Notes: a model not told the origin generated them from the letters alone. Counted from the stretch's first letter, positions 2,606 to 43,820 are shown. The stretch is DNA of 52,983 nt from Candidatus Sungiibacteriota bacterium (GCA_016186095.1 JACPMG010000011.1:1-52983), one strand, 5' to 3'. Numbers and translations are program-made.

Positions 2606-3022
2606 TTAGGCGCTTCTGCGATAGTGTTTTCGTACATCGTGCTGGCCGCGCGATTCTCGGGCCTTCTTCCGCGCCAGCCTAAGATTCTGATCAACCAAAT
2701 AGCGCACTCTTTCAAAAATTTCTTCTCTGTCTTTTAGATATCCGCGTTCTTTTTCGCGTAAAACATCAGCAGATATTTCTTGTTGGACGGGCCAATCAAG
2801 TTTTCTCAAGTCTTCAACTAATTTCTGGAAGCGGGTGTCTTCTTCTCCGTTTCCCTCGCGCTCGACTCCCAAGTCCGTGAACCAGTTCGGAATATTTTCT
2901 GGCGCGAGAAAATCGCGGCGATGAGCGCCCTTTTTCTCTTTGGTCCGGCGCTCCTCATCTGAAATTTCCTCCGGTCCGGGAAGGCCGCCTTCGCGTATTC
3001 CAAATTCTCCTTTGTAGGCCAT
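2606..3022 (-). CDS. hypothetical highly charged protein inserted between secE and nusG
   Basis: 138 aa. Starts 2 nt after the secE stop and ends 22 nt before the nusG start. Glu/Arg/Lys rich with no known motif. Confidence 0.55.
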   Translation of the reverse strand: MAYKGEFGIREGGLPGPEEISDEERRTKEKKGAHRRDFLAPENIPNWFTDLGVEREGNGEEDTRFQKLVEDLRKLDWPVQQEISADVLREKERGYLKDREEIFERVRYLVDQNLRLARKKARESRGQHDVRKHYRRSA

Positions 3023-5822: not shown

Positions 5823-5917
5823 TTTAAAGCAATGAAATATCCGCCCCAATTTGTGGATAACTTTTAGGCGGATATTGCCGTAGATAGACCGCTTTTTAAA
5901 TCAAGGAGTACAGGGTA

Positions 5918-5946
5918 ATTATAGCAGATTTTAGGTATCGTTTCAA
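5918..5946 (-). promoter_or_regulatory. gyrB promoter, TTGAAA-17-TATAAT
   Basis: On the minus strand, -35 at 5941-5946 and -10 at 5918-5923 with an exact 17 nt spacer, just after the pheT stop. Confidence 0.55.
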
Positions 5947-5951
5947 CTCCT

Positions 5952-8009
5952 CTATTTCCTCAATTCCCACCCTTTTTGCTCAAGGGCTTTGGTGATTTTT
6001 TCCACGAGTTTATTTATTTCTTCGTCCTTGAGTGTCCGGTCGGGCGATTGAAAGATAAGATGAAACGCCAAGCTTTTTTCTTCGGCGTCGCGCATATCTT
6101 CGTCCTGAAAATAGTCGAAAAGATCGGTATCTGCGAGGAGTTTTCCGCCTGTATTTTCTATAATATCGAGCACATGTTCAACTCTTGTGTCTGCGGGCAC
6201 GACTACTGCCAGATCGCGTATAATAGCCGGATATTTGCCAACTGGCCTGTATTCGGATTCGGTGGTTGCCGCGCGCCACAATTTTCCAAAATCAATTTCC
6301 GCGGCCACGATCCGCGCCTTTGCTTTTATATTTTCTATTATCACCGGATGGACTTCGCCTATATTCCCTATTTTTTCATCCCCAATTTTTATTTCAGCAA
6401 ATCGGTACGGATGGAACAATGTTTGCGATTTGCGATTTGCGTTTTGCGATTTTCTGCTTGGCGCGTCATCATACCAATGATCGCTAATTCCCATTTTTTC
6501 TAGAAGCTCGTCAACCGCCCCCTTTAGCCGATAAAATTCTTCTTCGCCCGATGTATTTTTTTGGGCAAGGACGATAACGAGGTCTTTGTGCTCGTTTATT
6601 TTCGGACCTTGGAAACTTTTACCGATTCCGAAGATCTTAACGCTATCGAAATAACGCGAATTTTCCGCGGCCGAGGCGACATATTTGATCAAAATTCTGG
6701 GAATAAGGTATTTTGTCTCTGGATTCATTGGATTTTCCAGCGAAATTGTTCGGCTAGCATCCATGCTAAACTTTTTCAGTTCCTCATCCCCGGTAAATTC
6801 GTAAAGCCAGCTCTCCGTAAATCCGGCGCCGGCAAGAAAATCCTTAATGCGCTCTTCCCACCAGACCTCGTCATTGCGGCGCGCCGGATGTATGGCAACC
6901 TCCGGTAAACGAGCGGTAATTTTCTCATAGCCGAACATACGCGCCGCCTCCTCCACAAGGTCCTCCTCAATTTGCAGATCGCGCCTGATCGTAGGAATTT
7001 CCACGACAAAATTTTCTCCGTCTTTTTCAACCCCCAGTCCGAGCCGTTCAAATACGGTTTTGTAAAAAATCGGGGCAAGCTCCTGGCCAATAACGCTATT
7101 GGCGTATGCGGGGCGGAAAAGTATATGAGCGGGAGCGACCTTTTCAGGATAAATATCTATTAGCGGCCCCATACGTTTGCCGCCGTATTTTTCTAGAAGC
7201 TCCATCGCTCGGGCAAGTCCGGTAAGCGTCCGATTTGGATCCAGGCCTGCGGCATAAAGTTTTGAGGCCGCAGAGAAGAAGTTTAGCGCGCGGGAAGTTT
7301 TATATATTCGCACGGGGTCAAACGTTGCAGCCTGCAGAAGTATTTTTTTGGTGTTTTTGGACACGGCGGAATTTTCTCCGCCCATGATGCCGGCCAGATC
7401 AACTATGCGGTTGGCGTCCTCGATGACGATAGCTCCCTTCGGCAGAACGTGTTTCGTGCCATCAAGCGTGGTTAGCTCTTCTCCTCGACCTGATTCTCTT
7501 ATAATAAGTTTGCCCCCCGGAATTTTATCAAGATCGAAGGCGTGAAGAGGCTGTCCTGTTTCCAACATCACGTAATTAGTAATATCTACCACTGCGTCAA
7601 TTGGCCGAAGTCCGCAGGTAGTAAGCCGTTCCCGCATCCATTTCGGCGATGAGCCGATCTTTTTTATTTCTAAAATCTGCGCGGTATATCGCGGGCACAA
7701 TTCGGTTTTGGAAATTTTGATTTTTAGGTTTTGGTGCGCCCGGGCTTTAGATTCTGAAAGTTGTTCTGGATTTTGTAACTCGGACTTAGAACTTTTCTGG
7801 AGAATCGCAGCTATTTCTTTGGCCATTCCCCAGTGGTGTCCCGCATCAGAGAGGCGGTTGGCGGGAATTTTTGCATCAAGCGCGAAATCTCTTTCGACCT
7901 TCTCGACAGTTTCAACCTCAAAGGAGCGGATATTCAAAATCTCAGCCAGTTTTTGCGGCGATTCCTTAAGATTTATTAATTTTTTGAGCCAATTATATGA
8001 GAATTTCAT
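5952..8009 (-). CDS. pheT: phenylalanine--tRNA ligase beta subunit
   Basis: 685 aa. N-terminus MKFSYNWLKKLI plus B3/4 and B5-type blocks, immediately downstream of pheS. Confidence 0.95.
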   Translation of the reverse strand: MKFSYNWLKKLINLKESPQKLAEILNIRSFEVETVEKVERDFALDAKIPANRLSDAGHHWGMAKEIAAILQKSSKSELQNPEQLSESKARAHQNLKIKISKTELCPRYTAQILEIKKIGSSPKWMRERLTTCGLRPIDAVVDITNYVMLETGQPLHAFDLDKIPGGKLIIRESGRGEELTTLDGTKHVLPKGAIVIEDANRIVDLAGIMGGENSAVSKNTKKILLQAATFDPVRIYKTSRALNFFSAASKLYAAGLDPNRTLTGLARAMELLEKYGGKRMGPLIDIYPEKVAPAHILFRPAYANSVIGQELAPIFYKTVFERLGLGVEKDGENFVVEIPTIRRDLQIEEDLVEEAARMFGYEKITARLPEVAIHPARRNDEVWWEERIKDFLAGAGFTESWLYEFTGDEELKKFSMDASRTISLENPMNPETKYLIPRILIKYVASAAENSRYFDSVKIFGIGKSFQGPKINEHKDLVIVLAQKNTSGEEEFYRLKGAVDELLEKMGISDHWYDDAPSRKSQNANRKSQTLFHPYRFAEIKIGDEKIGNIGEVHPVIIENIKAKARIVAAEIDFGKLWRAATTESEYRPVGKYPAIIRDLAVVVPADTRVEHVLDIIENTGGKLLADTDLFDYFQDEDMRDAEEKSLAFHLIFQSPDRTLKDEEINKLVEKITKALEQKGWELRK
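6422..6449. repeat. 4 x 7 nt tandem array (TCGCAAA in the sense strand) inside pheT
   Basis: The plus strand reads TTTGCGA TTTGCGA TTTGCGT TTTGCGA. It encodes RKSQNANRKSQ. Confidence 0.85.
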
Positions 8010-8425
8010 TATTTCTGCGGAAACATCTTTTTTCTATGTTCTTCAGAAGACCTCTTGTTTAAGTAGCTGGCTTTATTGCCCAACATGGCCTGAAAGGCTC
8101 CCAAGCTCTTTTGTACATTCGGAGGAAATAGGTGAAGTTCTTGGTTGAGTCTAGTGTTAAAGCCCAAGAGGTCTTCTCGGGTGGCGGTTTCCGCCTCAAT
8201 TTTTTCCCAAATATCTATGGCCGGCTCATATTCTGCCACGTGATCCGGGTTGATATCTATCAGGTCGTGATCATACGCACTAGGGTTTTCTGTGCCTGTC
8301 GGCGGACTTCCCTGTAATTCCCACAGGCGTTTCGCCTCTTTTGCCCCTCTTACTTTTTCCCAAAATTTGTTTCTAAATTTTTCTTTTCTCCCGTTTTCGG
8401 GAGCAGATTCTTTTTGTTCGGGCAT
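8009..8425 (-). CDS. hypothetical charged protein inserted between pheS and pheT
   Basis: 138 aa. Starts 2 nt after the pheS stop and its stop overlaps the pheT start. No recognised motif. Confidence 0.55.
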   Translation of the reverse strand: MPEQKESAPENGRKEKFRNKFWEKVRGAKEAKRLWELQGSPPTGTENPSAYDHDLIDINPDHVAEYEPAIDIWEKIEAETATREDLLGFNTRLNQELHLFPPNVQKSLGAFQAMLGNKASYLNKRSSEEHRKKMFPQK

Positions 8426-9973: not shown

Positions 9974-10049
9974 CGCGGGCGACCGGATTCGAACCGGCGA
10001 TCTTCTGATTGACAATCAGACGCTTTAAACCAGGCTAAGCTACGCCCGC
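9974..10049 (-). tRNA. tRNA-Asp (anticodon GTC)
   Basis: Hand-folded cloverleaf: acceptor GCGGGCG/CGCCCGC, anticodon loop TTGTCAA, T-arm GCCGG TTCGAAT CCGGT. CCA is not encoded directly after the discriminator. Confidence 0.9.
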
Positions 10050-10054
10050 ATTAT

Positions 10055-10195
10055 TTATTTTTTCTTTTTCACACGCCTGAAAAATTCAATTTGTCGCAAT
10101 CGGTTCCTAGCCTCTTTCAAAGTTTTATACGTTCCGAACGATCTTTCGGCGGCTTCGGAAAGTACGATATATTTTCCTTTTATTCTTTTGATCAT
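10055..10195 (-). CDS. possible 46-aa basic protein between two tRNA genes
   Basis: MIKRIKGKYIVLSEAAERSFGTYKTLKEARNRLRQIEFFRRVKKKK. It is below the ORF-track cutoff. It fills almost exactly the 148 nt tRNA-Met to tRNA-Asp spacer on the same strand. No Shine-Dalgarno sequence. Confidence 0.3.
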   Translation of the reverse strand: MIKRIKGKYIVLSEAAERSFGTYKTLKEARNRLRQIEFFRRVKKKK

Positions 10196-10197
10196 AT

Positions 10198-10270
10198 TGC
10201 CGGTGATAGGAATTGAACCTATGACCTAACGCTTATGAAGCGCTCGCTCTTACCACTGAGCTACACCGGC
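10198..10270 (-). tRNA. tRNA with CAT anticodon, elongator type (Met; a lysidine-modified Ile2 cannot be excluded)
   Basis: Acceptor GCCGGTG/CACCGGC, D-stem GCTC/GAGC (C11:G24), anticodon loop TTCATAA, T-arm ATAGG TTCAATT CCTAT. Confidence 0.88.
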
Positions 10271-10283
10271 ACCTATAAAAATA

Positions 10284-10354
10284 TCGCGGGGCCGGGAATT
10301 GCACCCGGGTCTCGAGGTTATGAGCCTCGCGAGGTACTTCTCCTCAACCCCGCA
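10284..10354 (-). tRNA. tRNA with CAT anticodon, probable initiator (fMet), atypical
   Basis: Anticodon loop CTCATAA. A11:U24 in the D-stem and a weak U1:G72 pair are initiator-like. Atypical points: only 71 nt, a 7-nt D-loop, T-loop TGCAATT (G55), and an anticodon stem with only two consecutive G:C pairs (30:40, 31:39) next to the loop. Confidence 0.7.
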
Positions 10355-10388: not shown

Positions 10389-10416
10389 TAATTGATTCGG
10401 GCCCCCGCGACCACAA

Positions 10417-10460
10417 GTATAACTCAAAACCGCTCCGAGTGGAGCGGTTTTGAGTTATAC
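10417..10460. terminator. perfect 20-bp hairpin overlapping the stop of the 189-aa gene
   Basis: GTATAACTCAAAACCGCTCC gagt GGAGCGGTTTTGAGTTATAC, at the end of the ligase-gatCA operon. Confidence 0.6.
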
Positions 10461-11024
10461 TTTTTCTTCAAACATTCCCAAATCCCTCAACGCCTGATCA
10501 TAAGAGCGGAGCGCGTGTATTATGGTTTCGCGCGTATGCTGCTCCAGCGGGTCGTGGGCGATCATATTGCGCAGGCGGTGCTGTTTCAATATGTCGTCCA
10601 GAAGCGCGTCGGCGCGAAGCACGGCCATGTTCCAATCGGATGGATTTTGCGAATTGGCCAGATCCCGTATATGTCCCCATTGTCTCTGCGCTTCTTCTTC
10701 CGGCGGGGCCGGCAGCTCTTCTTTGAGGCCACCCGTAGATTGAATGATTTCCGTCAATCTGGAGTAGCGGCGGATGGTGAACACTATAAAGACTAGAAGC
10801 CCAGCATTAATTACGGAAAAAATTATGGTGAGCCAGAAATTAATCCCCTGCCAATTTTTTGAATAGAACCATTCAAGCAGCCGTTGATACCAGTCCAGAA
10901 CCTCGCGTATATATAATCCGAGAAAAGATAGCGCTACAAGAAGCGCTATGATCGCGACGGTCATATCAGCGGTGATGGTAGACAACTTTTGATCCGATTT
11001 TTTATCCGATCCTTCTTCGGCCAT
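10455..11024 (-). CDS. hypothetical membrane protein (189 aa)
   Basis: Two N-terminal transmembrane helices and a soluble C-terminal domain. Starts 2 nt after the gatA stop. Confidence 0.6.
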   Translation of the reverse strand: MAEEGSDKKSDQKLSTITADMTVAIIALLVALSFLGLYIREVLDWYQRLLEWFYSKNWQGINFWLTIIFSVINAGLLVFIVFTIRRYSRLTEIIQSTGGLKEELPAPPEEEAQRQWGHIRDLANSQNPSDWNMAVLRADALLDDILKQHRLRNMIAHDPLEQHTRETIIHALRSYDQALRDLGMFEEKV

Positions 11025-14648: not shown

Positions 14649-14860
14649 CCAAATTTTGGAGTTACGCGTAAACGCGGAACGAACAAAATTTGGTTGCGGG
14701 ATTGAGCACCCCCCACTTACTCTTGTGCACGTTGTTCATCGGCGCTAAAACGGAAAATCCTTTTGCGGGCCTGCTCTGTACGTACATCTTGCACAAAAGT
14801 AAGTGGGGGGTAAAGGTTTTCTAGCTAAATTTTCTGCGTCCTTCGGACTTGAAAATTTAG
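14649..14860. other. three consecutive long stem-loops in a 230 nt spacer (candidate structured RNA)
   Basis: Hairpin I, 14649-14693: CCAAATTTT...AAAATTTGG enclosing CGCG taaa CGCG. Hairpin II, 14709-14810: 21-nt arms matching 20/21, CCCCCCACTTACTCTTGTGCA / TGCACAAAAGTAAGTGGGGGG. Hairpin III, 14825-14860: CTAAATTTTC...GAAAATTTAG enclosing GTCC ttcg GAC. Confidence 0.35.
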
Positions 14861-14870
14861 AGAAGGCCCC

Positions 14871-15329
14871 TTAATAATTAACTTGAAAGCCGCGTTTTAC
14901 CACCCTTAGGGGGTTGGTCCCGCAGCGGTATTGCCCCGAAGTTATAATCTCGGTATTTCCTCCGGTCTTGGATACGCGGATCGTGTAGCAAGCGCCGGAT
15001 TCGGTATCAAATGTTTGCGCCGGGAAACAATTGATCCCGGGAGTGGGACAGATTTCCCCGGTTATCCTGTCGCGAAAAAGCATCTTTTCAATCCCCTGAT
15101 CGGCGGCGTAAAAAGCTACGAACGAATCGGCTATTTCGCCGGATATTTTTATCTGTCCGAGGACAACATTAAAAATTCCTATGGATATAGAAAAAAGCAC
15201 AGATAGAATAACCACCACTAGAAGGAGGGTAATGCCCCGTTCCCCGGAAGATAAGGGGTAAAAGATAAAGGATAAAAACCTTCCTTTTTCATTTTTGTCT
15301 TTTGTCTTTTGTCTTTTGTCTTGAATCAT
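14871..15329 (-). CDS. PilX-like minor pilin / pilus assembly protein
   Basis: 152 aa with a hydrophobic ITLLLVVVILSVLFSISIG segment after GERG. The ATG overlaps the upstream stop (ATGA). Confidence 0.6.
   Translation of the reverse strand: MIQDKRQKTKDKNEKGRFLSFIFYPLSSGERGITLLLVVVILSVLFSISIGIFNVVLGQIKISGEIADSFVAFYAADQGIEKMLFRDRITGEICPTPGINCFPAQTFDTESGACYTIRVSKTGGNTEIITSGQYRCGTNPLRVVKRGFQVNY
15294..15321. repeat. 4 x 7 nt tandem array (AGACAAA in the sense strand) in the 5' coding end of the PilX-like gene
   Basis: The plus strand reads TTTGTCT four times exactly. It encodes QDKRQKTKDK directly after the ATG. Confidence 0.9.
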
Positions 15330-15945: not shown

Positions 15946-16572
15946 TTAGCGCCAATTATAAAAACGTTCGCGCAGGCTCATATTTTTCATTGCGCCCCGT
16001 TCGTCCCAGGTGACGGTTGAGACTACATCCATTTGATCTTCAGCCGGGATGCCGGCATCTGGCGAATCGGGCGGGACTTTTATCGTCACACAGCGGCTGA
16101 AAATCGTCTCCTGGCTTCCGGTGTAGCCGTAGAGGCCAGTGGCAGAGTCAAAGCGCAATTTTTCTCCGCAGGAAGTTGAGAGGATGGGCATTATGATACT
16201 AGCCCCGTTTATCCCGCCGCAGTCCATGGCGATTGTTCTGTCCGTGGAAATACCCGCAGTGGCGTTTACGAACTTGTGGTCGGTCGGAGGGTAAGGCGGC
16301 TCCGGATCGGAATTCCACGGCCACGATCCCGGTCCGTTGAGGATGTCACAGGCAATATTGTTGTCGCGTACCGCGCGCACCAGCTCAATTCCCTCTTGGG
16401 CAAGATTAGCTGCTGTGATTTTGTTTTTAGCAAAAGAAAAATCAAAAATACCCCTGGTTATTAGCGCAACGGGTCCGACGAGTGCTGCCAAGATAACTGC
16501 GAGCGCTACTATGGTTTCGAGCAGAGTAAATCCCAGCTGGCTTGGCCGATGGAATTTTGGGTAAGGGGTCAT
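15946..16572 (-). CDS. prepilin-type minor pilin (PilV-like)
   Basis: ...RPSQLG|FTLLETIVALAVILAAL, the class III signal-peptide signature. Confidence 0.8.
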   Translation of the reverse strand: MTPYPKFHRPSQLGFTLLETIVALAVILAALVGPVALITRGIFDFSFAKNKITAANLAQEGIELVRAVRDNNIACDILNGPGSWPWNSDPEPPYPPTDHKFVNATAGISTDRTIAMDCGGINGASIIMPILSTSCGEKLRFDSATGLYGYTGSQETIFSRCVTIKVPPDSPDAGIPAEDQMDVVSTVTWDERGAMKNMSLRERFYNWR

Positions 16573-17141
16573 TTTATGGAGATTTGTCCGCTGGTCCGCG
16601 CGACCACCTTCTTTTTTTTGCCGGAGGACGACGAGAGCTCCATCTCCACCCTATCTCCGATGGACGTTCCGTCGGTTCCGGTAATCGCCACTACCGCCTC
16701 CGGCGCGGAAAACATAATATGTACGATCGAATACGATGCGTTTGAAGAATCGAGCAGTGAGTTTATTCTTACTCCCGCTGGCAGAGCTTCATCCGCGCCT
16801 ATTTTCGCATCATCCGACGTATAGCGGTTGTCGCGGACGACATCGACGAAAAGAAAATACGCTGAAGGCACGGCCTTGTCTAGTCTGATCCCGACCGCGT
16901 CCGGAATTTTAGGACCGGAGGAAGTTTCTACTTGAGTTACGGCTAGCGACATGTTTTGCGCGCGGCGAATGGCCAGTGCCAGTTCGCGGCTCGCCCGGTT
17001 TATCGCCCCGCCTTCACTAAGGCCGGTGAAGCTGACCAAAACGACCGTGCTTATCATGGTTATAATGCCGAGCATAACTACGACCTCTATCATAGTGAAC
17101 CCCGCACATAATTTGTGCGGACGGTCTTTTGTATCCTGCAT
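16569..17141 (-). CDS. prepilin-type minor pilin (GspH/FimT-like)
   Basis: MQDTKDRPHKLCAG|FTMIEVVVMLGIITM. Start placed at Met32 of the ORF-track frame. The upstream 31 codons are a decayed copy of the leader. Confidence 0.75.
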   Translation of the reverse strand: MQDTKDRPHKLCAGFTMIEVVVMLGIITMISTVVLVSFTGLSEGGAINRASRELALAIRRAQNMSLAVTQVETSSGPKIPDAVGIRLDKAVPSAYFLFVDVVRDNRYTSDDAKIGADEALPAGVRINSLLDSSNASYSIVHIMFSAPEAVVAITGTDGTSIGDRVEMELSSSSGKKKKVVARTSGQISIK

Positions 17142-17166
17142 GGCGCAAATTATGTGTGGGGTGAAC
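17095..17166 (-). promoter_or_regulatory. inverted repeat bracketing the minor-pilin start codon
   Basis: CCCCGCACATAATTTG (17101-17116) against CAAATTATGTGTGGGG (17146-17161) matches 15/16. The start codon at 17139-17141 lies in the loop. Confidence 0.4.
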
Positions 17167-17417
17167 CCCGCGCATTTTTTTGACAGGATAAGCGGTCGCA
17201 TATCTATAATTATATCCTTTTTCTCCCCAAACAAAAACCGCCCTTTGGTAGGGCATGGGCTATAGGCCAGAGCGTCATTTTCACCCCGCTAGAACGCCGC
17301 CGATCATGTCGGCGGCAGCTAAGAAAGGGGCCGATAGGAGTTAATGTTCCTATGATCACGACGCGAAACGTACGTTCTAACGGGATTCACGGCGAATACT
17401 ATAACGGTCGCCGGGCA

Positions 17418-17810
17418 CTATAGCGAGATTTGAAATTGGCTGGTCGACGAGAGTACCGTTTTTATAGATGTCCATACGCCGCTTTTCCCGGCAACGGAAT
17501 ATATTTTCCCCGTTCGAATAGAAAATTTGAACTGACCAGCTTGACCGACGGCGTCAAGCGCCCGCTCCAACTCATAGGATGAAGTCGTGTCGCTTTCAAA
17601 TATTCGCAGATCTTTGGGGCCGAAATCAATCTCCACGATCTCTTTGGCGTGAGGCGGACGCTTGGGCATGGGCGAAGACCCGTAAGTAAGGGACGTTGAT
17701 AGAAAGTCCTGGTAGAAGATTTGGTTGGAATAGAAAATTAGACCCAGCGCAAGGCAGGAAGAAATGCCGAGGGCGATCCAGGCGTAGACATTTTGGTTAG
17801 GGCTTACCAT
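17418..17810 (-). CDS. hypothetical membrane-anchored protein (130 aa)
   Basis: One N-terminal transmembrane helix. Overlaps the pilD stop by 7 nt. Confidence 0.5.
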   Translation of the reverse strand: MVSPNQNVYAWIALGISSCLALGLIFYSNQIFYQDFLSTSLTYGSSPMPKRPPHAKEIVEIDFGPKDLRIFESDTTSSYELERALDAVGQAGQFKFSIRTGKIYSVAGKSGVWTSIKTVLSSTSQFQISL

Positions 17811-18589
17811 AGAAAATTAATTAAGCCGCTAAGGGCGAGAAAGCGCTGTCCCAGTATTTGCGCCAGAGCCGCGCCTATAATAATAAAAGGTCCGAAGGGC
17901 ACCTGATCTTTTAAAGTTTTTCGGCCGGATAAGATAAGCAAAATTCCCGCTATTCCGCCGAGCCAAAAGGCGAAAAGAAATCCCGGGAGTGATAGCGGAT
18001 AGCCGAGGACAAGCGACGTCGCAAAAATTAGTTTTGCGTCTCCAAGCCCCATGGCCGTACCTTTGGAAAAAAACCAAAAAAGGGCCAATACGGCTGAAAA
18101 AATAAGAGCCGCGGCTAAAGCGGCCGGGAGAGACGGGCGGTCCAGGATACGCTCGGCTAGGCCGATTACAGCAAGGACTAATACCGCGCCATTGGGAATG
18201 ATCCGGTAGCGAAAATCAGACACGAGAATGACGATCGAAGCTCCCAGCCCCAAGGAAAGTGCTGAGATGGCCGAGAGAGTAAAAAGATCAAGTGATGGAA
18301 AAACAAAGTACGGTCGCCATAACTGCCAGGCCCCAACATACAAAAGTGCGGTTCCAAGTTCCACGAGCGGGTATTGCCAAGAAAGGGCGGCACCGCAATG
18401 GCGGCACCGCCCTTTCAAAAAGGCAAAACTTATAACGGGCACGAGTTCAAACGGAGACAATACGGCTTTACACGATTCGCATCTTGACCTTCCGCCCAGG
18501 GTTTCGCCACGACCTCCGCGGATGATGACTACGTTAAGAAAACTGCCCACCGTCAAGCCAAAGAGAAAGACGACAAAAGTAGCGAACAT
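17804..18589 (-). CDS. pilD: prepilin peptidase (A24 family)
   Basis: 261 aa. N-terminal Cys cluster CESC...CRHCG, a polytopic membrane body and GLGDAKL. Confidence 0.9.
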   Translation of the reverse strand: MFATFVVFLFGLTVGSFLNVVIIRGGRGETLGGRSRCESCKAVLSPFELVPVISFAFLKGRCRHCGAALSWQYPLVELGTALLYVGAWQLWRPYFVFPSLDLFTLSAISALSLGLGASIVILVSDFRYRIIPNGAVLVLAVIGLAERILDRPSLPAALAAALIFSAVLALFWFFSKGTAMGLGDAKLIFATSLVLGYPLSLPGFLFAFWLGGIAGILLILSGRKTLKDQVPFGPFIIIGAALAQILGQRFLALSGLINFLW

Positions 18590-22058: not shown

Positions 22059-22086
22059 GTTACTGGTAACCAGTTACCGGTTATTA
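22059..22086. repeat. 4 x 7 nt GTTACCA-type array forming the pilin2 to response-regulator spacer
   Basis: GTTACTG GTAACCA GTTACCG GTTATTA. Self-complementary. Confidence 0.75.
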
Positions 22087-22521
22087 CGGCGTTGCCGTAT
22101 GGACTCCGGCGGATTTACCGGAAATACTGTTCGTTTCCAGATAATAGGTAAGCGTATAGGTTGAGCCGTCTGCGGAATCGTACGCATATTGGTAATTGCC
22201 GGAATTGAAAGGATCGACAGGCACCTGGTTAAGCGCGCCGTCATTTACCAGCGCCACGGATGCCTGGTCCGCGCCGGATAGGGGGCCGGAGTAGATAGGA
22301 TAAGTCCTGTTGTTGACCGCATATATGGCCAGGGCGTTTTGCAGGGTTTTTATTTCCGATTCGCGTTCCGCGTCTCTTGATCGCGCACGGGAAGACGATA
22401 CTTGTACTAAAATGAGCGATCCCAGAAGCACGATGATCGCCATTACGACCAGAAGTTCGACTATCGTGAAACCAACCGCTCTGTTTGTAATTTGTAATTT
22501 GTAATTTGTAATTTTTTTCAT
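22084..22521 (-). CDS. type IV pilin (second pilin)
   Basis: MKKITNYKLQITNRAVG|FTIVELLVVMAIIVLLGSL. The ATG overlaps the upstream stop (ATGA). Confidence 0.85.
   Translation of the reverse strand: MKKITNYKLQITNRAVGFTIVELLVVMAIIVLLGSLILVQVSSSRARSRDAERESEIKTLQNALAIYAVNNRTYPIYSGPLSGADQASVALVNDGALNQVPVDPFNSGNYQYAYDSADGSTYTLTYYLETNSISGKSAGVHTATP
22484..22511. repeat. 4 x 7 nt tandem array (TTACAAA in the sense strand) inside the prepilin leader
   Basis: The plus strand reads TTTGTAA four times exactly. It lies between the ATG and the G|F cleavage site. Confidence 0.9.
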
Positions 22522-24183
22522 ACTACCTCCAAGAGCTCTTCTAGCCCGATTAATCCTTTTAGCACTTTCAGTATACCATCTTGTTTTAGGGTAATCATCC
22601 CCTGGCGTTTTGCTTCCTCGCTGATACGCGACTCCGAGGGGCCGGTGAGTATGATTTTTTCAAGTTCCGGAGTCATGGAAAGAACCTCAAAGATGCCGGT
22701 CCGTCCCCGGGTACCTTTCGGACAGGAAGGACCCGCCTCGGCCTGATATATTTCCTGCAGCGCCTCTTTTTTTATCTTTTCGCGCGCATCCGCCGGCAGG
22801 GCATCAATTTCCTTGGCGATGAGTTCCTTCATTTTTGTCTGCAATTTAGTTTTTTTCCTCGAGTCCGGACAAAGCTTTCGCGCCAGCCTTTGCCCGACGG
22901 CCAGTATTAGCGTCGGGGGTATAAGGTACGGGTCAATGCCCATATCAATAAGGCGGGGGACCACGCCGATCATGAACCGCCAGTGCCGCGGTTTCTTTGT
23001 CCCGTATCTCGCCTACCATGATGATATCCGGGTCCTGTCTTACTATGTGGCGCAGGCCGGTGGCAAAATCATACCCGATCTCCGGTCGGATTTGAGATTG
23101 ATTCACGCCAGCCACAAAATATTCGATTGGGTCCTCCAGGCTGACTATGTTGGTGCGTTCCTGGTTGAGAATCTGTAAAATCGCATAAAGGGTCGTTGAT
23201 TTGCCCGACCCGGTGGGTCCGGTGATTAGTATCATCCCGTAGGGCCGTTTGATGTTTTCTTCTAGGAGAGAAAGATTTCTCCCTTCAAGGCCGAGGTCGG
23301 AAAGCGTTTTGACACCCGCCTCCGGATCAAGAATTCTTATGGCGACTTTTTCTCCGAAAGCGGTGGGGAAAGTGGATACGCGAAAATCTATATCCCGGCC
23401 CATAATTTCTGCGTGGAACCTCCCGTCTTGCGGGATCCTCGTTTCATCAATTTTAAGATTGGTCATGACTTTGATGCGGGTCACAATCGCCGGACGCACG
23501 TCCAGGGGCAGGAGAAGACTTGTATGCAGGACTCCGTCTACGCGAAAACGCACGCGCAGTTTATCGCGCGCCGGTTCAATATGGATGTCCGATGCGTGCC
23601 CTTCTACCGCGTGACGGAGGATTACGGCCATCATTTTGGTGACCGGCGCCTCTTCGACAATTTTGGCCGGCTCCTCGCGTCTTATTTTAACCTCTTCCCC
23701 CAGCGCTTCATATTCTTTTTCGAATTCGCCGAGGGCCTTGGTGACCTCGCCGGACAAACTGCGGTACTCCCCCAGGACGTTTTCCAGATCGGACGGGGTT
23801 ATGACAAAAATTCTAGAAGGCAGATTGGCGCGCGCGGCGATAAATTTCAGGGCCTCCTGTGCCGATACGTCATCGGGGAAGAGCATCCCAATTTCAAGGT
23901 AGCCTTCGTTTCTGCCCAACGGGATCATCTTATAGTGGCGCGCCGATTCTTCCGGAATATCGCGCAATGCTTCAAAAGAGACGTTTAGGCCGCGCAAGAA
24001 TTTTGTTGGGTATCCGGTAAGTTCACTTTTAGCGGCAGCCACGTCTTCCTCCGTCACCCCGTACTGGTAGAGAATTTCCTCCACGGGAACCTTTTTATCT
24101 TTGGCCTCTTTTCGTACTAGGGCGGATTTGGCGAGATCGAGAATATTTTGGGAAATGAGAATGTCTATGAGTGATTTGGCCAT
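22518..24183 (-). pseudogene. pilB: pilB/GspE-type assembly ATPase, disrupted (internal deletion plus frameshift)
   Basis: The 412-aa ORF ends ...MVGEIRDKETAALAV-HDRRGPPPY*. The 151-aa ORF resumes in another frame at MIGVVPRLIDMG. About 18 residues matching [18 protein letters not shown] of the intact copy (the His box) are missing. Confidence 0.75.
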
Positions 24184-24259
24184 GGTATACTACGAATTAC
24201 GTATTTTTACGAATATACGAATTCGTACATTCTAGCGGACTCGTTATTCGTAGAGATCA
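24184..24259. repeat. TACGAAT cassette, copy A
   Basis: Left arm ACTACGAATTACGTATTTTTACGAATATACGAAT, palindrome TACGAATTCGTA (24216-24227), right end GTTATTCGTAGAGATCA. The termini are inverted repeats. Confidence 0.85.
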
Positions 24260-25788: not shown

Positions 25789-25862
25789 ATAGACTACGAA
25801 TTACGTATTTTTACGAATGTACGAATTCGTACTTTCATACGATTCGCTATTCGTGGTGATCA
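25789..25862. repeat. TACGAAT cassette, copy B
   Basis: ACTACGAATTACGTATTTTTACGAATGTACGAATTCGTAC...GCTATTCGTGGTGATCA. About 45 nt match copy A with 2 mismatches. Confidence 0.85.
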
Positions 25863-28305: not shown

Positions 28306-30063
28306 TTATTCGCTAGTAACCCGCAATACCTCCTCAATGGATGTTATCTTTTGCGCGGCTTTGATGAATCCTTCCTCGAGCATGGTGAGCATGCCTTCTT
28401 CCCGGCCCCGTTTTTCAATATCATCCGACGTTGAGTTTTTCATGACGAGTTCCTTTATGGATTCGGACATCTCCAACACCTCATGTATTCCAATCCGGCC
28501 TTTATACCCTTCGGGACACTCTTCTCCTTTTTGCGGCCTTCCCCATTCCACTTTCTCAATGGCGGTTTTCGCGTCAACTATTTTTTCGCGTTTCAAAACC
28601 TCCAGTACACGATCAAGATTAATGTCTTTTTGGAGACTGGTGATTTCTCCACGCGATAGCTTGTAGGCTTCATGCTCTGGGCATAACCGCCGTACTAAAC
28701 GTTGCGAGATGATGGCGGTGACAGTAGAGGCAATCAAAAACGGCTCTACCTTCATGTCCAGTAACCGCGGGAGCGCTCCGGCCGCGGAATTAGTATGCAG
28801 AGTCGATAGCACTAAATGGCCGGTGAGCGCTGCGTTTATGGCGAGCCCCGCGGTTTCATTATCGCGGATCTCGCCCACCATGATTATATTTGGATCCTGG
28901 CGCAGGAGCGAACGCAGGCCGTTGGCAAAAGATAGTCCAATGTCCGGGCGGACCTGCGTTTGGTTTATATGCGGGATGCGATATTCGATCGGATCTTCAA
29001 CGGTGGAGATATTGACGCCGGGCTTATTCAGCATTTCCAGAATCGTATAAAGAGTGGTGGTTTTTCCCGAGCCGGTGGGGCCGGTGGCTAGTATTATTCC
29101 GGTCGGACGCCTGATGGCGCGCTGGATTCTTTCTAGGTTCTCGCCCCAAAATCCGAGCTCCTCCAGAGCAAATCCTTTAACGCTTTCCGGCAGAAGCCGC
29201 ATCACTATTTTTTCTCCGTCAAATACCGGCAGTACAGATACGCGGAAAGAAATCCTGTATTCTTCATTTTCAACTTTAAATCTGCCGTCCTGCGGCAGGC
29301 GGTGCTCGTCGAGTTTTAGATTGGACATTACTTTGATGCGCGCGACCAGGCCCGGGGCGATTTGTTTGGGAAGAGTCATCGCGTCGTGCAGTATCCCGTC
29401 TATGCGGTAGCGTACCAGTACCTCTTTTTCCATGGGCTCGACGTGTATGTCAGAGGCGCTTTGCAATATGGCGTGGCGGATTAGGGTATCCACGATGCGG
29501 ATAACCGGAAGATCTTCGGCCAGTTTTTTTAAATTCTCCGTTTCTGTATCTCCTTTATCTCCTCTTGTCTCCGTCGCGACTTTGAGTGTGTCCGCCTCTT
29601 TCTTAAGAATTTCTCCGAACTCTGCTTCCAGCGTCTTCTGATATTGTCGTAGAATATGCTGTATTGATTCACTCGTGGTCAGGCGGGGAAGAATCCGCAG
29701 GCCCTCTTTTTTCCGGATAAACTCTATAGTTTGAATATCGTCCGGGTCGATCATGGCCACCTCTAAATCGCCGTCCGTTTTTTTGAAAGCAATTATATTG
29801 TGCTTGCGGGCTATGGGCTCGGGTATAATGCGAAGAATTTGTGGAGGGATTGTCTCGCGGGTGAGATCAACAAAGGGTATGCCAAGTATATAGGCCTCAA
29901 GGCGTTTAAGTTCGTCTTCCTTGGCGTAACCTTTATTGAGCAGGACCTCGCGTAGTGTCTTGCCCAGTTTTACCGCTTCTTCTTCCGCTTCTTTCAAGAG
30001 ATCGGTTTTGATGAGCCCTGAGTCCAGGAGAAATGCTTTGAGTTGAGATTCTTCAACGCGCAT
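28306..30063 (-). CDS. pilB: type IV pilus assembly ATPase PilB (GspE family), intact
   Basis: 585 aa. T2SSE_N domain, Walker A GPTGSGKTTT, MVGEIRD, TGHLVLSTLHTN and tetra-Cys CPEH...CPEG. Confidence 0.93.
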   Translation of the reverse strand: MRVEESQLKAFLLDSGLIKTDLLKEAEEEAVKLGKTLREVLLNKGYAKEDELKRLEAYILGIPFVDLTRETIPPQILRIIPEPIARKHNIIAFKKTDGDLEVAMIDPDDIQTIEFIRKKEGLRILPRLTTSESIQHILRQYQKTLEAEFGEILKKEADTLKVATETRGDKGDTETENLKKLAEDLPVIRIVDTLIRHAILQSASDIHVEPMEKEVLVRYRIDGILHDAMTLPKQIAPGLVARIKVMSNLKLDEHRLPQDGRFKVENEEYRISFRVSVLPVFDGEKIVMRLLPESVKGFALEELGFWGENLERIQRAIRRPTGIILATGPTGSGKTTTLYTILEMLNKPGVNISTVEDPIEYRIPHINQTQVRPDIGLSFANGLRSLLRQDPNIIMVGEIRDNETAGLAINAALTGHLVLSTLHTNSAAGALPRLLDMKVEPFLIASTVTAIISQRLVRRLCPEHEAYKLSRGEITSLQKDINLDRVLEVLKREKIVDAKTAIEKVEWGRPQKGEECPEGYKGRIGIHEVLEMSESIKELVMKNSTSDDIEKRGREEGMLTMLEEGFIKAAQKITSIEEVLRVTSE

Positions 30064-30144
30064 GCGGTCTCGATGCCAATATGCGAATGAATACCAATTA
30101 TACGAATTCGTATCATTGGTAAATTAGTATATTCGTATCGATAC
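30064..30144. repeat. NNCGAAT/CCAAT cassette E, running into the 3' end of the response-regulator gene
   Basis: TGCCAAT aTGCGAAT gaaTACCAAT, then a 26-nt palindrome (30094-30119) centred on GAATTC, then GTATATTCGTATCGATAC. That last stretch encodes the final residues VSIRIY. Confidence 0.75.
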
Positions 30145-30447
30145 TTTAGTGGTGGCGCCGAGCTGTAGTGCCTTCTCTACGTCCGTGCTTCCTTCAAGAT
30201 TGGTCAAAATCACCACCGGAATATTCTTGGTTGCCTCATCGCGTTTTAGCTCCTGCAAAACCTCAAAGCCGTCTTTTTTGGGCAGAATCAGATCAAGAAG
30301 GATCAAGTCCGGCTTTTCTTCTTTGGCCAAACGCAATCCGATCTCTCCGTCAAGAGCCGATGACATCTGGTATCCTTCTTCGGAAAGAATCTGGGTCGCG
30401 GCGCGTTGAAGCGCGGATTCATCCTCTATGAAAAGTATCTTCTTCAT
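30124..30447 (-). CDS. receiver-only response regulator, C-terminally truncated
   Basis: 107 aa. DES..., LLDLILPKKDG, then ends LQLGATTKVSIRIY*. The two paralogs continue GADDYxIKAHF plus about 20 more residues. Confidence 0.7.
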   Translation of the reverse strand: MKKILFIEDESALQRAATQILSEEGYQMSSALDGEIGLRLAKEEKPDLILLDLILPKKDGFEVLQELKRDEATKNIPVVILTNLEGSTDVEKALQLGATTKVSIRIY

Positions 30448-30545
30448 GGGTTACTACGAATTACGAATTTTTACGAATGTACGAATGAACAAATTAGTAT
30501 TCGTATATTCGTACTGATTAGTAATTCGTAGTGATCATTATTTTG
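30448..30545. repeat. TACGAAT cassette, copy C
   Basis: ACTACGAATTACGAATTTTTACGAATGTACGAAT...GTAATTCGTAGTGATCA. Perfect 12-bp terminal inverted repeat ACTACGAATTAC/GTAATTCGTAGT and a 15-bp inner stem. Confidence 0.85.
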
Positions 30546-42201: not shown

Positions 42202-42250
42202 ACTAAGTTTGTAGGAATTAGCTTGTAGGCGTTAGGAGAAAGTCTCTTAA

Positions 42251-42278
42251 AGCTACAAGCTACAAGCTACAAGTTACA
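42251..42278. repeat. 4 x 7 nt tandem array (AGCTACA/CTACAAG) abutting the nusA TTG start
   Basis: AGCTACA three times, then AGTTACA, then AGCTTGG, which contains the start codon. Confidence 0.85.
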
Positions 42279-42281
42279 AGC

Positions 42282-43703
42282 TTGGACTTAAAATCATTTA
42301 CTCAAGCAATTCAGCAAATAGCTGATGAAAAAGGAATAGCCAAAGAGAAAATTTTCGAGGCGATCGAGATGGCTTTGGCCGCGGCCTATAAACGCGATTA
42401 CGGAAAGCGCGGGCAGATTGTGCGCGCCCAAATGGACCCGGACTCCGGAAAAGTTACCATGACCCAGATAAAAATCGTGGTGGATGAGACCATGATTAAG
42501 TCCGAAGAGGAGGTCGCTCAAGAGGAGGCTCTGCGAGAGAAGAGGCTTGCCGAAGCCACAGCCATGGCCGCCTCCGGAAAAGTAAGCGAACCCGCTCCGG
42601 CCAAAGTCGCGGAAGCCGAAGAAGTTGAAGGCGAGAAAAAGGTCCGTTTCAATCCGGAAAAGCATTTGATGATTGAAGAGGCGCGCGTGACCAAGCCGGA
42701 TGTAAAACCCGGAGATGAACTTGAATTTCCTTTGGAGTATCATGAGGACTATGGCCGCATTGCCGCGCAAACCGCCAAGCAGGTGATTGTCCAGCGGATT
42801 CGTGAGGTTGAGCGCGAAGTGGTTTTTGACGAATATAAAAATAAAGAAGGAGAGTTGGTGAGCGGCCTGATACAGCGGGTGGAGGGGCGCAATATTTTCA
42901 TAGACATTGGCCGCACCGTGGGCGTGTTGACGCCCGAGGAGCAGATTCCATACGAGAGATATCGCATTGGCGAGCGCATCAAAGTGCTGATTACGCTTGT
43001 GGAAAGAAATCCCAAAGGTCCCGGAGTTTTCCTTTCCCGTTCTCACCCCAAACTCCTGAAAAAATTGTTTGAAATTGAGGTGCCCGAGATTGCTTCCGGT
43101 GCTGTGGAGATAAAAGCCATGGCGCGGGAGCCCGGCTCCCGCTCTAAAGTTGCCGCCGTATCGCACGAGGATGGAGTTGACCCTGTGGGGTCGCTGGTGG
43201 GTCAGAAAGGAATCAGAGTTTCTACCGTTATAAACGAGCTTGGCGGAGAGAAAATTGATGTAATTGAGTGGGCCGAGGATCCGGCGGAATTCATAGGAAA
43301 TTCTCTGTCGCCCGCCAAAGTGCTGGACGTGGAAATTAACGAGAAGAGACGAGAAGCGCGGGCTATTGTGCCGGATGAGCAGCTGTCGCTGGCTATTGGC
43401 AAGGGCGGACAGAATGTGCGGCTCGCGGCCAAACTTACCGGATGGAAAATTGACGTGAGATCATCAAAGCCGAAAGCCGTTGAAGAAGAAATTCCAACAG
43501 AAGAAGAATCCGCCGTCGCTAAAGCTATGGCGGACGAGGGAGGAGCAAAGGAAAAGGAATTGTCCGAGACGGCTAAAGAGGAGCTGAAGGAAACGATCGC
43601 CGAGGCGCTGGGAACGGAGGAGAAGAAAGAAGGCGCGGGGAAAGGTTCTGAAGAGAAAAAGGAGAAAAAGCCAAAGAAGAAAAAGAAGGAAAATAGCCTA
43701 TAA
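42282..43703 (+). CDS. nusA: transcription termination/antitermination factor NusA
   Basis: 473 aa. N-terminal domain, S1 and two KH blocks (GPKGSRV-like, LAIGKGGQNVRLA), and a Lys/Glu-rich tail. TTG start. Confidence 0.92.
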   Translation: MDLKSFTQAIQQIADEKGIAKEKIFEAIEMALAAAYKRDYGKRGQIVRAQMDPDSGKVTMTQIKIVVDETMIKSEEEVAQEEALREKRLAEATAMAASGKVSEPAPAKVAEAEEVEGEKKVRFNPEKHLMIEEARVTKPDVKPGDELEFPLEYHEDYGRIAAQTAKQVIVQRIREVEREVVFDEYKNKEGELVSGLIQRVEGRNIFIDIGRTVGVLTPEEQIPYERYRIGERIKVLITLVERNPKGPGVFLSRSHPKLLKKLFEIEVPEIASGAVEIKAMAREPGSRSKVAAVSHEDGVDPVGSLVGQKGIRVSTVINELGGEKIDVIEWAEDPAEFIGNSLSPAKVLDVEINEKRREARAIVPDEQLSLAIGKGGQNVRLAAKLTGWKIDVRSSKPKAVEEEIPTEEESAVAKAMADEGGAKEKELSETAKEELKETIAEALGTEEKKEGAGKGSEEKKEKKPKKKKKENSL

Positions 43704-43811
43704 ATTTCTAATTTCTAATTTCTAATATCTAATTTCTAATGAAACTCCCAACATTAGATGTCTAATGTCTAAAACGGCCGTCACTAGACATTAGAAATTA
43801 GGAATTAGACA
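43704..43811. repeat. self-complementary cassette built from ATTTCTA / ATGTCTA words (nusA-hppA spacer)
   Basis: Five ATTTCTA-type units (43704-43738). An 11-bp perfect stem TCTAATGTCTA / TAGACATTAGA (43761-43771 / 43785-43795). The right arm TAGAAATTAGGAATTAG complements the left array. Confidence 0.8.
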
Positions 43812-43820
43812 TTGCGTAAC

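Follow-up and report, generated by a model that had tools for sequence, protein, structure and literature searches.

Exact heptanucleotide arrays in two pilus genes of a Candidatus Sungiibacteriota bacterium and their place in a clade-wide family of ~30-nt repeats

The window analysed here, a 52,983-nt stretch of DNA from a Candidatus Sungiibacteriota bacterium (GCA_016186095.1, JACPMG010000011.1:1-52983), carries a type IV pilus gene cluster in which two minus-strand genes hold an exact tandem array of a 7-nt unit close to the start codon. These genes and the neighbouring features considered with them are as follows.

22084..22521, minus strand: type IV prepilin gene, T2SSG/GspG-like (Pfam T2SSG hit)
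22484..22514, minus strand: prepilin array, exact (TTACAAA)x4.4, codons 4-13 of the leader
14871..15329, minus strand: gene for a PilX-like minor pilus protein, 152 aa
15293..15322, minus strand: PilX-like array, exact (AGACAAA)x4.3, beginning 8 nt past the ATG
15250..15276, minus strand: degenerate inverted partner arm within the PilX-like ORF (TTTTTATCCTTTATCTTTTACCCC..., GATAAAG-type units)
17804..18589, minus strand: prepilin peptidase PilD (domain matches to A24_N_bact and Peptidase_A24)
22518..22973 and 22945..24183: the two pieces of the pilB ORF, with the deletion region at 22945-22973

Tandem Repeats Finder and direct reading both gave the prepilin array a period of 7, 4.4 copies and 100% identity over 22484-22514, so the (TTACAAA)x4 that an initial annotation of this DNA had described in the leader of the second pilin was real. 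On the coding strand (minus, 22521-22470) the gene opens with ATG AAA AAA A(TTACAAA)x4 CAGAGCGGTTGGT TTC, and the translated N-terminus, MKKITNYKLQITNRAVG|FTIVELLVV, displays the features of a type IV prepilin, namely a basic leader, Gly-1/Phe+1...Glu+5 and a hydrophobic helix thereafter, with a prepilin peptidase encoded nearby. PilD would be the enzyme expected to remove this array-encoded leader, in which three extra units, read from the sequence, amount to 7 more residues. The prepilin ATG overlaps the pilB stop codon (ATGA), GGAGG lies just upstream, and the array as RNA is A-rich and predicted to be unstructured (z = -1.3). Neither the prepilin nor the PilX-like gene contained an alternative in-frame start 3' of the array that would leave the array untranslated. 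Exact look-up of the prepilin protein returned no record, and metagenome contigs searched with the mature pilin yielded no sibling and a single locus, 60% identical; a genome-contig search with a pilin alignment was flooded by the universal GFTxxELLVV motif (top match 42%), and its matches were used only as controls. Just upstream of the array-bearing pilin, pilB has a 50-nt frameshifting deletion relative to two related clusters (L082 and L083), with AALTGHLVLSTLHTNNA lost, so that the gene is a pseudogene unless the assembly is wrong here. A further PilB-type ATPase, at 28306..30063, is intact.

The PilX-like gene reads ATG ATT CA(AGACAAA)x4, and the array previously noted at its start was likewise confirmed, with 4.3 copies at 100% identity over 15293-15322 by Tandem Repeats Finder. 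The protein has no G|F cleavage site and reads ...ERG ITLLLVVV, so the array forms part of an N-terminal tail that precedes the membrane helix and not of a leader shown to be cleaved. The original placement of both arrays between the ATG and the cleavage site thus holds for the prepilin, with its canonical G|FTIVE and a PilD gene present, and is not supported for the PilX-like protein. The tail exceeds that of the array-free ortholog in the related cluster L087 (MKSLHKNG|ITLLL, 128 aa, a single CACAAAA) by 24 aa, and these extra residues before the membrane helix equal 3 extra units plus the 51-nt inverted arm, whose in-frame translation is FLSFIFYPLSS. In another relative, L085, the gene has an ATG followed by (AAAACAC)x4.4 and encodes 135 aa, the difference of 7 aa from L087 being 3 units. 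The start codon overlaps the upstream stop (ATGA) in both the window and L087, and in L085 the ATG comes 2 nt after that stop. An RNA hairpin formed by the PilX-like array and its inverted arm was considered and was unsupported (z = +0.6).

Two inverted repeats were observed separately from these arrays. One, with 28-nt arms and a 48-nt spacer, lies at 14708-14811 between the PilX-like and DNA ligase genes. The other, of 20 nt (17099-17162), lies in a minor pilin ORF (16569..17234) that has a long predicted N-terminus (…KKCAGFTPHI…HKLCAGFTMIEVV) and whose true start is probably a downstream ATG (MQDTKDRPHKLCAG|FT); the L085 ortholog of this minor pilin has a (ATTTTGG)x4.6 array in a similar N-terminal extension.

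Simulated alleles upheld the point that gain or loss of one unit shifts the reading frame: in both genes, 1, 4 or 7 units gave a full-length protein, whereas 2, 3, 5, 6 or 8 units led to a stop after 8-102 codons. With 7 and 3 having no common factor, successive units fall into each of the three frames in turn, and the units of perfect and near-perfect coding arrays were stop-free in every coding-strand frame. Because a one-unit change truncates the protein, each pilin array is a latent frameshift hotspot. A repeat in the 5' coding region (8-10 nt past the ATG) and a frame that flips with a one-unit change are both expected of a contingency locus, but the concentration in surface genes that would also be expected was not found, with arrays occurring in pheT, at nusA, by response-regulator genes and in spacers as well.

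At least eight period-7 arrays were present in the window, and among periods 4-15 long exact arrays occurred only at period 7. Exact period-7 arrays of at least 3 copies numbered four in the window versus none in 200 window shuffles. Heptamer arrays at 42250-42282, 43703-43740 with 43785-43813, 30453-30532 and 15250-15276 had gone unlisted in the initial annotation. Outside the two pilus genes, the features concerned are the following.

5952..8009, minus strand: pheT, an essential gene
6422..6452, minus strand: pheT array, (TCGCAAA)x4.4 with one variant unit, in a PheT surface loop
42205..42283, plus strand: hairpin element 5' of nusA, -35.9 kcal/mol, z = -4.7
43703..43813, plus strand: inverted pair (ATTTCTA)x5.4 / (TAGAAAT)x4.1, -31.6 kcal/mol, z = -6.0
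30453..30532, minus strand: inverted TACGAAT/ATTCGTA pair, -31.4 kcal/mol, z = -6.9
30453-30486, minus strand: 34-nt ATTCGTA box, first copy, upstream of a response regulator (ATG 30447)
25793..25826, minus strand: 34-nt ATTCGTA box, second copy, ending 4 nt before the pilN-like ATG (25788)
24189..24222, minus strand: 34-nt ATTCGTA box, third copy, ending 5 nt before the pilB ATG (24183)

All three intergenic pairs were predicted to fold into stable hairpins, with energies of -31 to -36 kcal/mol and z scores between -4.7 and -6.9. The nusA element is made up of a degenerate yet conserved arm (TTGTAGGAATTAGCTTGTAG), a loop that contains AGGAG and an (AAGCTAC)x4.7 array (42250-42282) that runs into the TTG start codon, AGGAG being placed in the apical stem of the predicted hairpin. 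Downstream of nusA, the 43703-43740 array begins directly after the stop codon and its inverted partner (43785-43813) ends at the H+-pyrophosphatase gene, so that the pair takes up the spacer from the stop codon of the one gene to the start codon of the other. The 30453..30532 pair lies between two response-regulator genes, and its 3' arm ends 5 nt short of the ATG at 30447. An Rfam scan of the window returned three tRNAs only, indicating that the hairpins match no known RNA family, and a search of the window for a transposase, RAYT or reverse transcriptase gene found none. A perfect 22-nt palindrome at 10415-10462 was seen adjoining three tRNA genes (9974-10354).

The 34-nt box has the consensus ATTCGTA[CT]ATTCGTAAAAAT[TA]CGTAATTCGTAGT and precedes a start codon by 4-5 nt at four places, three of them in the window and one in L001, a locus from distant Patescibacteria (5917-5950, 5 nt before an ATG); an ATTCGTA box was also listed at L058 6049-6084. 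ATTCGTA/TACGAAT was observed 27 times in the window versus 6.8 expected, with 20 copies in pilus-cluster spacers, and TACGAATTCGTA palindromes lie at 25812-25839 and 30092-30121. The box appears to be a regulatory motif belonging to the pilus cluster.

The third array of the same form, which had been reported in pheT, was present with 4.4 copies at 6422-6452 but was not exact, because one unit differs (TCGCAAA, ACGCAAA, TCGCAAA, TCGCAAA; encoding SRKSQNANRKSQT). The loop that bears it is 12 residues longer than in Thermus PheT. Four genomes had about 4 units at this loop, GATAAAG-like in L092 and L093, AAGACAA in L094 and TCGCAAA in the window, and in the GATAAAG array of L092 a mutated unit occurs where a perfect array would give an in-frame TAA. 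The purity of pheT arrays was 80-91%, and two relatives had further pheT-internal arrays (AAGAATC x4.6 and CAAGCTA x4.9). A sibling pheT allele (P0207) was unchanged in length and had one SNP within the array. A simple "+7 residue" model for pheT was rejected, as close orthologs differ by 3 residues and have other units at the same loop. A PheT homolog known as protein only (P0126) has 3 tandem copies of the 9-residue unit TAVHTREGT at this loop, which thus accepts tandem repeats of other periods too. Between pheS and pheT we also noted a 138-aa ORF without a Pfam match (8009-8425), in the place of which L094 has a 110-aa ORF and L092 and L093 have none.

Homologs of the pilin and of PheT came from Patescibacteria, mostly Sungbacteria/Parcubacteria MAGs, and syntenic pilus clusters were retrieved as L082, L083 and L084 (PilB identity 89-90% where present), L087 (80%) and L085 (73%). 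The close clade (118 kb of non-redundant DNA) contained 21 period-7 arrays of at least 3 copies, or 17.8 per 100 kb, and only two of its 23 arrays had another period. Other Patescibacteria loci held 3.6 arrays per 100 kb, and non-CPR controls (~0.9 Mb) 1.6 per 100 kb, spread over many periods. Period-7 arrays were abundant in L082, L083, L084 and L085, and the 20-kb stretch of L087 had none; the genome CP066690.1 also seems to be free of them. The clade-wide occurrence of the arrays, their presence in the pheT loop of four genomes and the similar in-frame arrays of about 4 units at orthologous pilin positions support the earlier caveat of a genome-wide process. A literature search found no report of heptanucleotide repeats in Patescibacteria.

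Array positions and lengths were then compared among orthologs. The L085 pilin has (AATTACA)x4.3, with the same unit as the window pilin and its ATG within a mutated unit; the L083 pilin begins ATGACC(AAGACAA)x4.1; an inverted array pair spans the ATG of the L084 pilin; and the L082 and L087 pilins have short plain leaders, L082 carrying (CGACAAC)x5.4 ahead of its PilX-like gene. Arrays of the relatives also occurred in PilM/N and PilT/C spacers, at the starts of response-regulator and minor-pilin genes and at two pheT positions. The orthologous pilin arrays also had about 4 units and were in frame, and array length clustered at 29-31 nt at coding and non-coding sites alike. Purity was 100% in the window pilin genes, the L083 pilin and the L085 PilX-like gene. 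Arrays were found at matching sites across genomes with 50-88% protein identity, with their units replaced, and this persistence implies either continuing turnover or retention by selection.

ORF interiors held 7 of 22 arrays against a background of 77% (p = 7.5e-6, automatic ORF calls), or 5 of 22, all of them in pheT, by the gene calls of the tool, and outside pheT almost every array was within ~10 nt of a start codon. About 20 distinct units were seen, with 53 kb of the window's genome covered, and AAGCTAC, AGACAAA, TTACAAA and ATTCGTA recurred. In the predominance of period 7, and in the many short sets near starts and mostly outside ORF interiors, the arrays resemble genome-wide heptanucleotide repeat families. 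The predicted N-termini comprised 3-51 residues in 85 pilin homologs and 5-55 in 86 PilX-like homologs, many of them recognisably heptamer-encoded. Some of the long leaders predicted in relatives are probably artefacts of gene calling, as in L091 a TTG directly after the hairpin yields a canonical leader, MRKSARG|FT.

Signs that arrays are copied as well as amplified in place came from the sequences of units and modules at different sites. The AAGCTAC unit occurred at 5 loci in 4 genomes, and AGACAAA was shared by pheT, a pilin gene and the PilX-like gene. A module of ~95 nt (aligned over ~100 nt) at the 5' end of the window PilX-like gene matched the 5' end of the L084 pilin with a score of 71, versus 15.7 +/- 2.8 for shuffles, and the peptide DKSKKIKDKS was found both in a PilX-like N-terminus (P0233) and in a PheT loop (P0095). 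The AAGCTAC hairpins form a dispersed family, with a perfect array arm and a conserved degenerate arm (TTGTAGGNATTAGNTNGTAG), occurring once in the window, twice in L082 and once in L083:

window 42205-42283: AAGCTAC hairpin
L082 4159-4232: AAGCTAC hairpin
L082 9313-9370: AAGCTAC hairpin
L083 1-65: AAGCTAC hairpin

These hairpins stand in both orientations relative to genes, the L082 copies being inverted with respect to the nusA one, and the first array unit of the L082 copies supplies, with its TAG, the stop codon of pilM and of pilT. Homologous hairpin and module copies at non-orthologous sites, as known for REP/MITE-type elements, were thus found here.

Logan contigs, which are built at k=31 with singleton k-mers dropped and each 31-mer kept once per accession (PMC12424806), were 99.9-100% identical to the window in runs SRR12113383, -384, -385, -422, -424, -429 and -430. 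Contigs of this population from five runs started at 22511 or 22513, or ended at 15293, which are exactly the positions of the arrays. The purely periodic 31-mers at the pilin and PilX-like arrays are AAATTACAAATTACAAATTACAAATTACAAA and (AAGACAA)x4+AA, and a contig break after such a k-mer means that the k-mer has more than one context, which in turn means either longer alleles or an array repeated elsewhere in the metagenome. Four sibling contigs had the identical 4 TTACAAA units in the prepilin array, and no copy-number variants were seen among sibling contigs, k=31 contigs being unable to report more than 4.4 units. The assembled arrays of pilin-type genes, of which the window has two, L085 three and L083 one, were all in frame, two of them having been found via protein search, which is biased towards intact genes. 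Five of 87 PilX-like orthologs (P0238, P0254, P0259, P0262 and P0268) were called only from within the membrane helix and may for this reason be out of frame at the 5' end. A 1-nt indel was noted between position 3013 of sibling contig L101 and window position ~17470 (GGAACATC versus GGACATC), with which the ORF downstream of pilD has 144 aa in the sibling versus 130 aa in the window. Positions 1-19 of Logan contig L103 (AGATGTGTATAAGAGACAG) are a Nextera adapter remnant and non-genomic.

On balance, we favour by a modest degree the reading that the pilin arrays belong, as tolerated and in-frame copies, to a clade-wide family of ~30-nt heptamer arrays and are latent frameshift hotspots; they are most likely not dedicated, locus-specific switches. 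Slippage-type amplification of a 7-nt unit, the copying of an existing array or hairpin module, or the two together would generate new or re-homogenised arrays. Selection would then purge every harmful copy and leave those that lie in spacers or right at a translation start, in N-termini that are cleaved off or lack structure, or in surface loops; within ORFs an array would persist only with a stop-free orientation and an in-frame length. Counting against this reading are the higher purity of the pilin-gene arrays compared with those in pheT, the contig breaks at both pilin arrays, the persistence of arrays with replaced units at matching sites, and the closeness of nearly all non-pheT arrays to a start codon. 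In a more active version of events, a propagating family of ~30-nt arrays and ~95-nt hairpins would be copied into start regions and loops and create real frameshift switches in pilus genes, which we regard as rather improbable. Repeats can become enriched at N-termini simply because protein structure tolerates them there, or because phase variation is selected for (PMC3315296).

If the pilin arrays were contingency loci, slipped-strand mispairing would change the unit number, making pilus composition or piliation phase-variable, which could help in phage evasion or in detachment from the host. The frame logic described above holds, the arrays occupy the very beginning of the coding region in two genes for surface structures and recur at the equivalent place in orthologs, and the perfection of the pilin-gene arrays against the interrupted pheT arrays is a difference that selection for mutability would produce. 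The PilX-like orthologs with possibly out-of-frame 5' ends and the breaks of sibling k=31 contigs at both pilin arrays, the latter ambiguous, point the same way, as does the precedent of neuO, a heptanucleotide repeat in a 5' coding region (PMC13001214). Against this stand the low number of units, only 4 where neuO has 3-53, most commonly 20, with 66% of genomes OFF, and the fact that every assembled pilin-type array was in frame with no length variant observed. The presence of arrays in essential pheT, at nusA and in spacers argues against locus specificity, and the pilB gene upstream carries its 50-nt frameshifting deletion in the assembly. Switching of this kind is accordingly an unlikely account of the arrays.

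A role as cis elements of the translation start region or as operators, by analogy with the TAACTGA repeats that lie upstream of start codons in Beggiatoaceae, would fit the proximity of nearly all non-pheT arrays to a start codon (within ~10 nt) and the array-bearing spacers that have no Shine-Dalgarno sequence adjoining the ATG. It would also fit the AGGAG in the apical stem of the predicted nusA hairpin, the 34-nt ATTCGTA box kept 4-5 nt before an ATG between the divergent window and L001, the ATTCGTA excess, nearly all of it in pilus-cluster spacers, and the unstructured, A-rich pilin array. As the ATGA overlap leaves no spacer, such an element would have to stand just after the ATG and be translated. 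The units nevertheless vary by locus, which makes a single binding factor unlikely, the elements occur in either orientation relative to genes, arrays are also found inside pheT, and the pilin gene already has a strong GGAGG; we hold a cis role to be doubtful, and slightly more so than switching. Short periodic sequence can mis-assemble, but an assembly or sequencing artefact was effectively ruled out, since 7 independent Logan contigs from five runs had the identical 4 units with flank and independent assemblies of related genomes carried comparable arrays.

In ultra-small Patescibacteria, a central part in host attachment and DNA uptake is ascribed to type IV pili. Were pilin switching by slippage to prove true, Patescibacteria would gain their first described case of contingency-locus behaviour, and type IV pilus components would be phase-variable in an episymbiotic, genome-reduced bacterium. 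Even without switching, a streamlined genome has ~18 heptamer arrays per 100 kb, with arrays set in frame into leaders, into N-terminal tails and into a loop of an essential tRNA synthetase, which bears on how streamlined genomes generate variation. The arrays produce highly variable predicted N-termini of pilin orthologs, and start-codon calls may run through repeat hairpins, a matter of relevance to gene annotation.

Among known systems, neuO of phage CUS-3 in E. coli K1 has tracts of 3-53 units, of which 20 is the commonest number, is OFF in 66% of genomes and shows mixed tract lengths within one culture (PMC13001214). The pilin arrays resemble it in having a 7-nt unit just past the start codon, expression that would depend on the number of units modulo 3 and a hydrophilic heptad peptide. 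They differ in that neuO tracts are long and polymorphic, whereas the window has 4 units, no variant seen, and arrays also in housekeeping genes and spacers. Heptamer repeats with the unit TAACTGA occur in marine Beggiatoaceae, some Cyanobacteria and Bacteroidetes (MacGregor 2015, PMC4679880). Likeness to these lies in the many short sets (2-6 copies) per genome, mostly a few nt from start codons and in spacers where no canonical ribosome-binding site is present, and in rare stop-free copies at protein termini inside ORFs. Beggiatoaceae, however, have one dominant heptamer and nearly no inverted pairs, while here there are many unit families, frequent inverted hairpin pairs and arrays in an essential gene.

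The cyanobacterial STRR heptamers are comparable heptanucleotide tandem repeats. Among long simple repeats with units of 5-11 nt, heptanucleotides are the commonest where present and occur in sporadic taxa, according to the work of Mrazek et al. 2007 as summarised elsewhere (PMC4679880, PMC4692102). The uniform ~30-nt length and the conserved hairpin modules seen here fall outside that description. REP and MITE elements are short imperfect palindromes with homologous copies at unrelated intergenic sites. Here too, homologous hairpin copies occur at unrelated sites in related genomes, but their arms are tandem heptamers, one of them often perfect, and the window has no transposase, RAYT or reverse transcriptase gene. 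Within heptamer repeats, the family described here differs in its host lineage, its many unit families, its ~30-nt length, its hairpin pairing and its in-frame presence in an essential gene.
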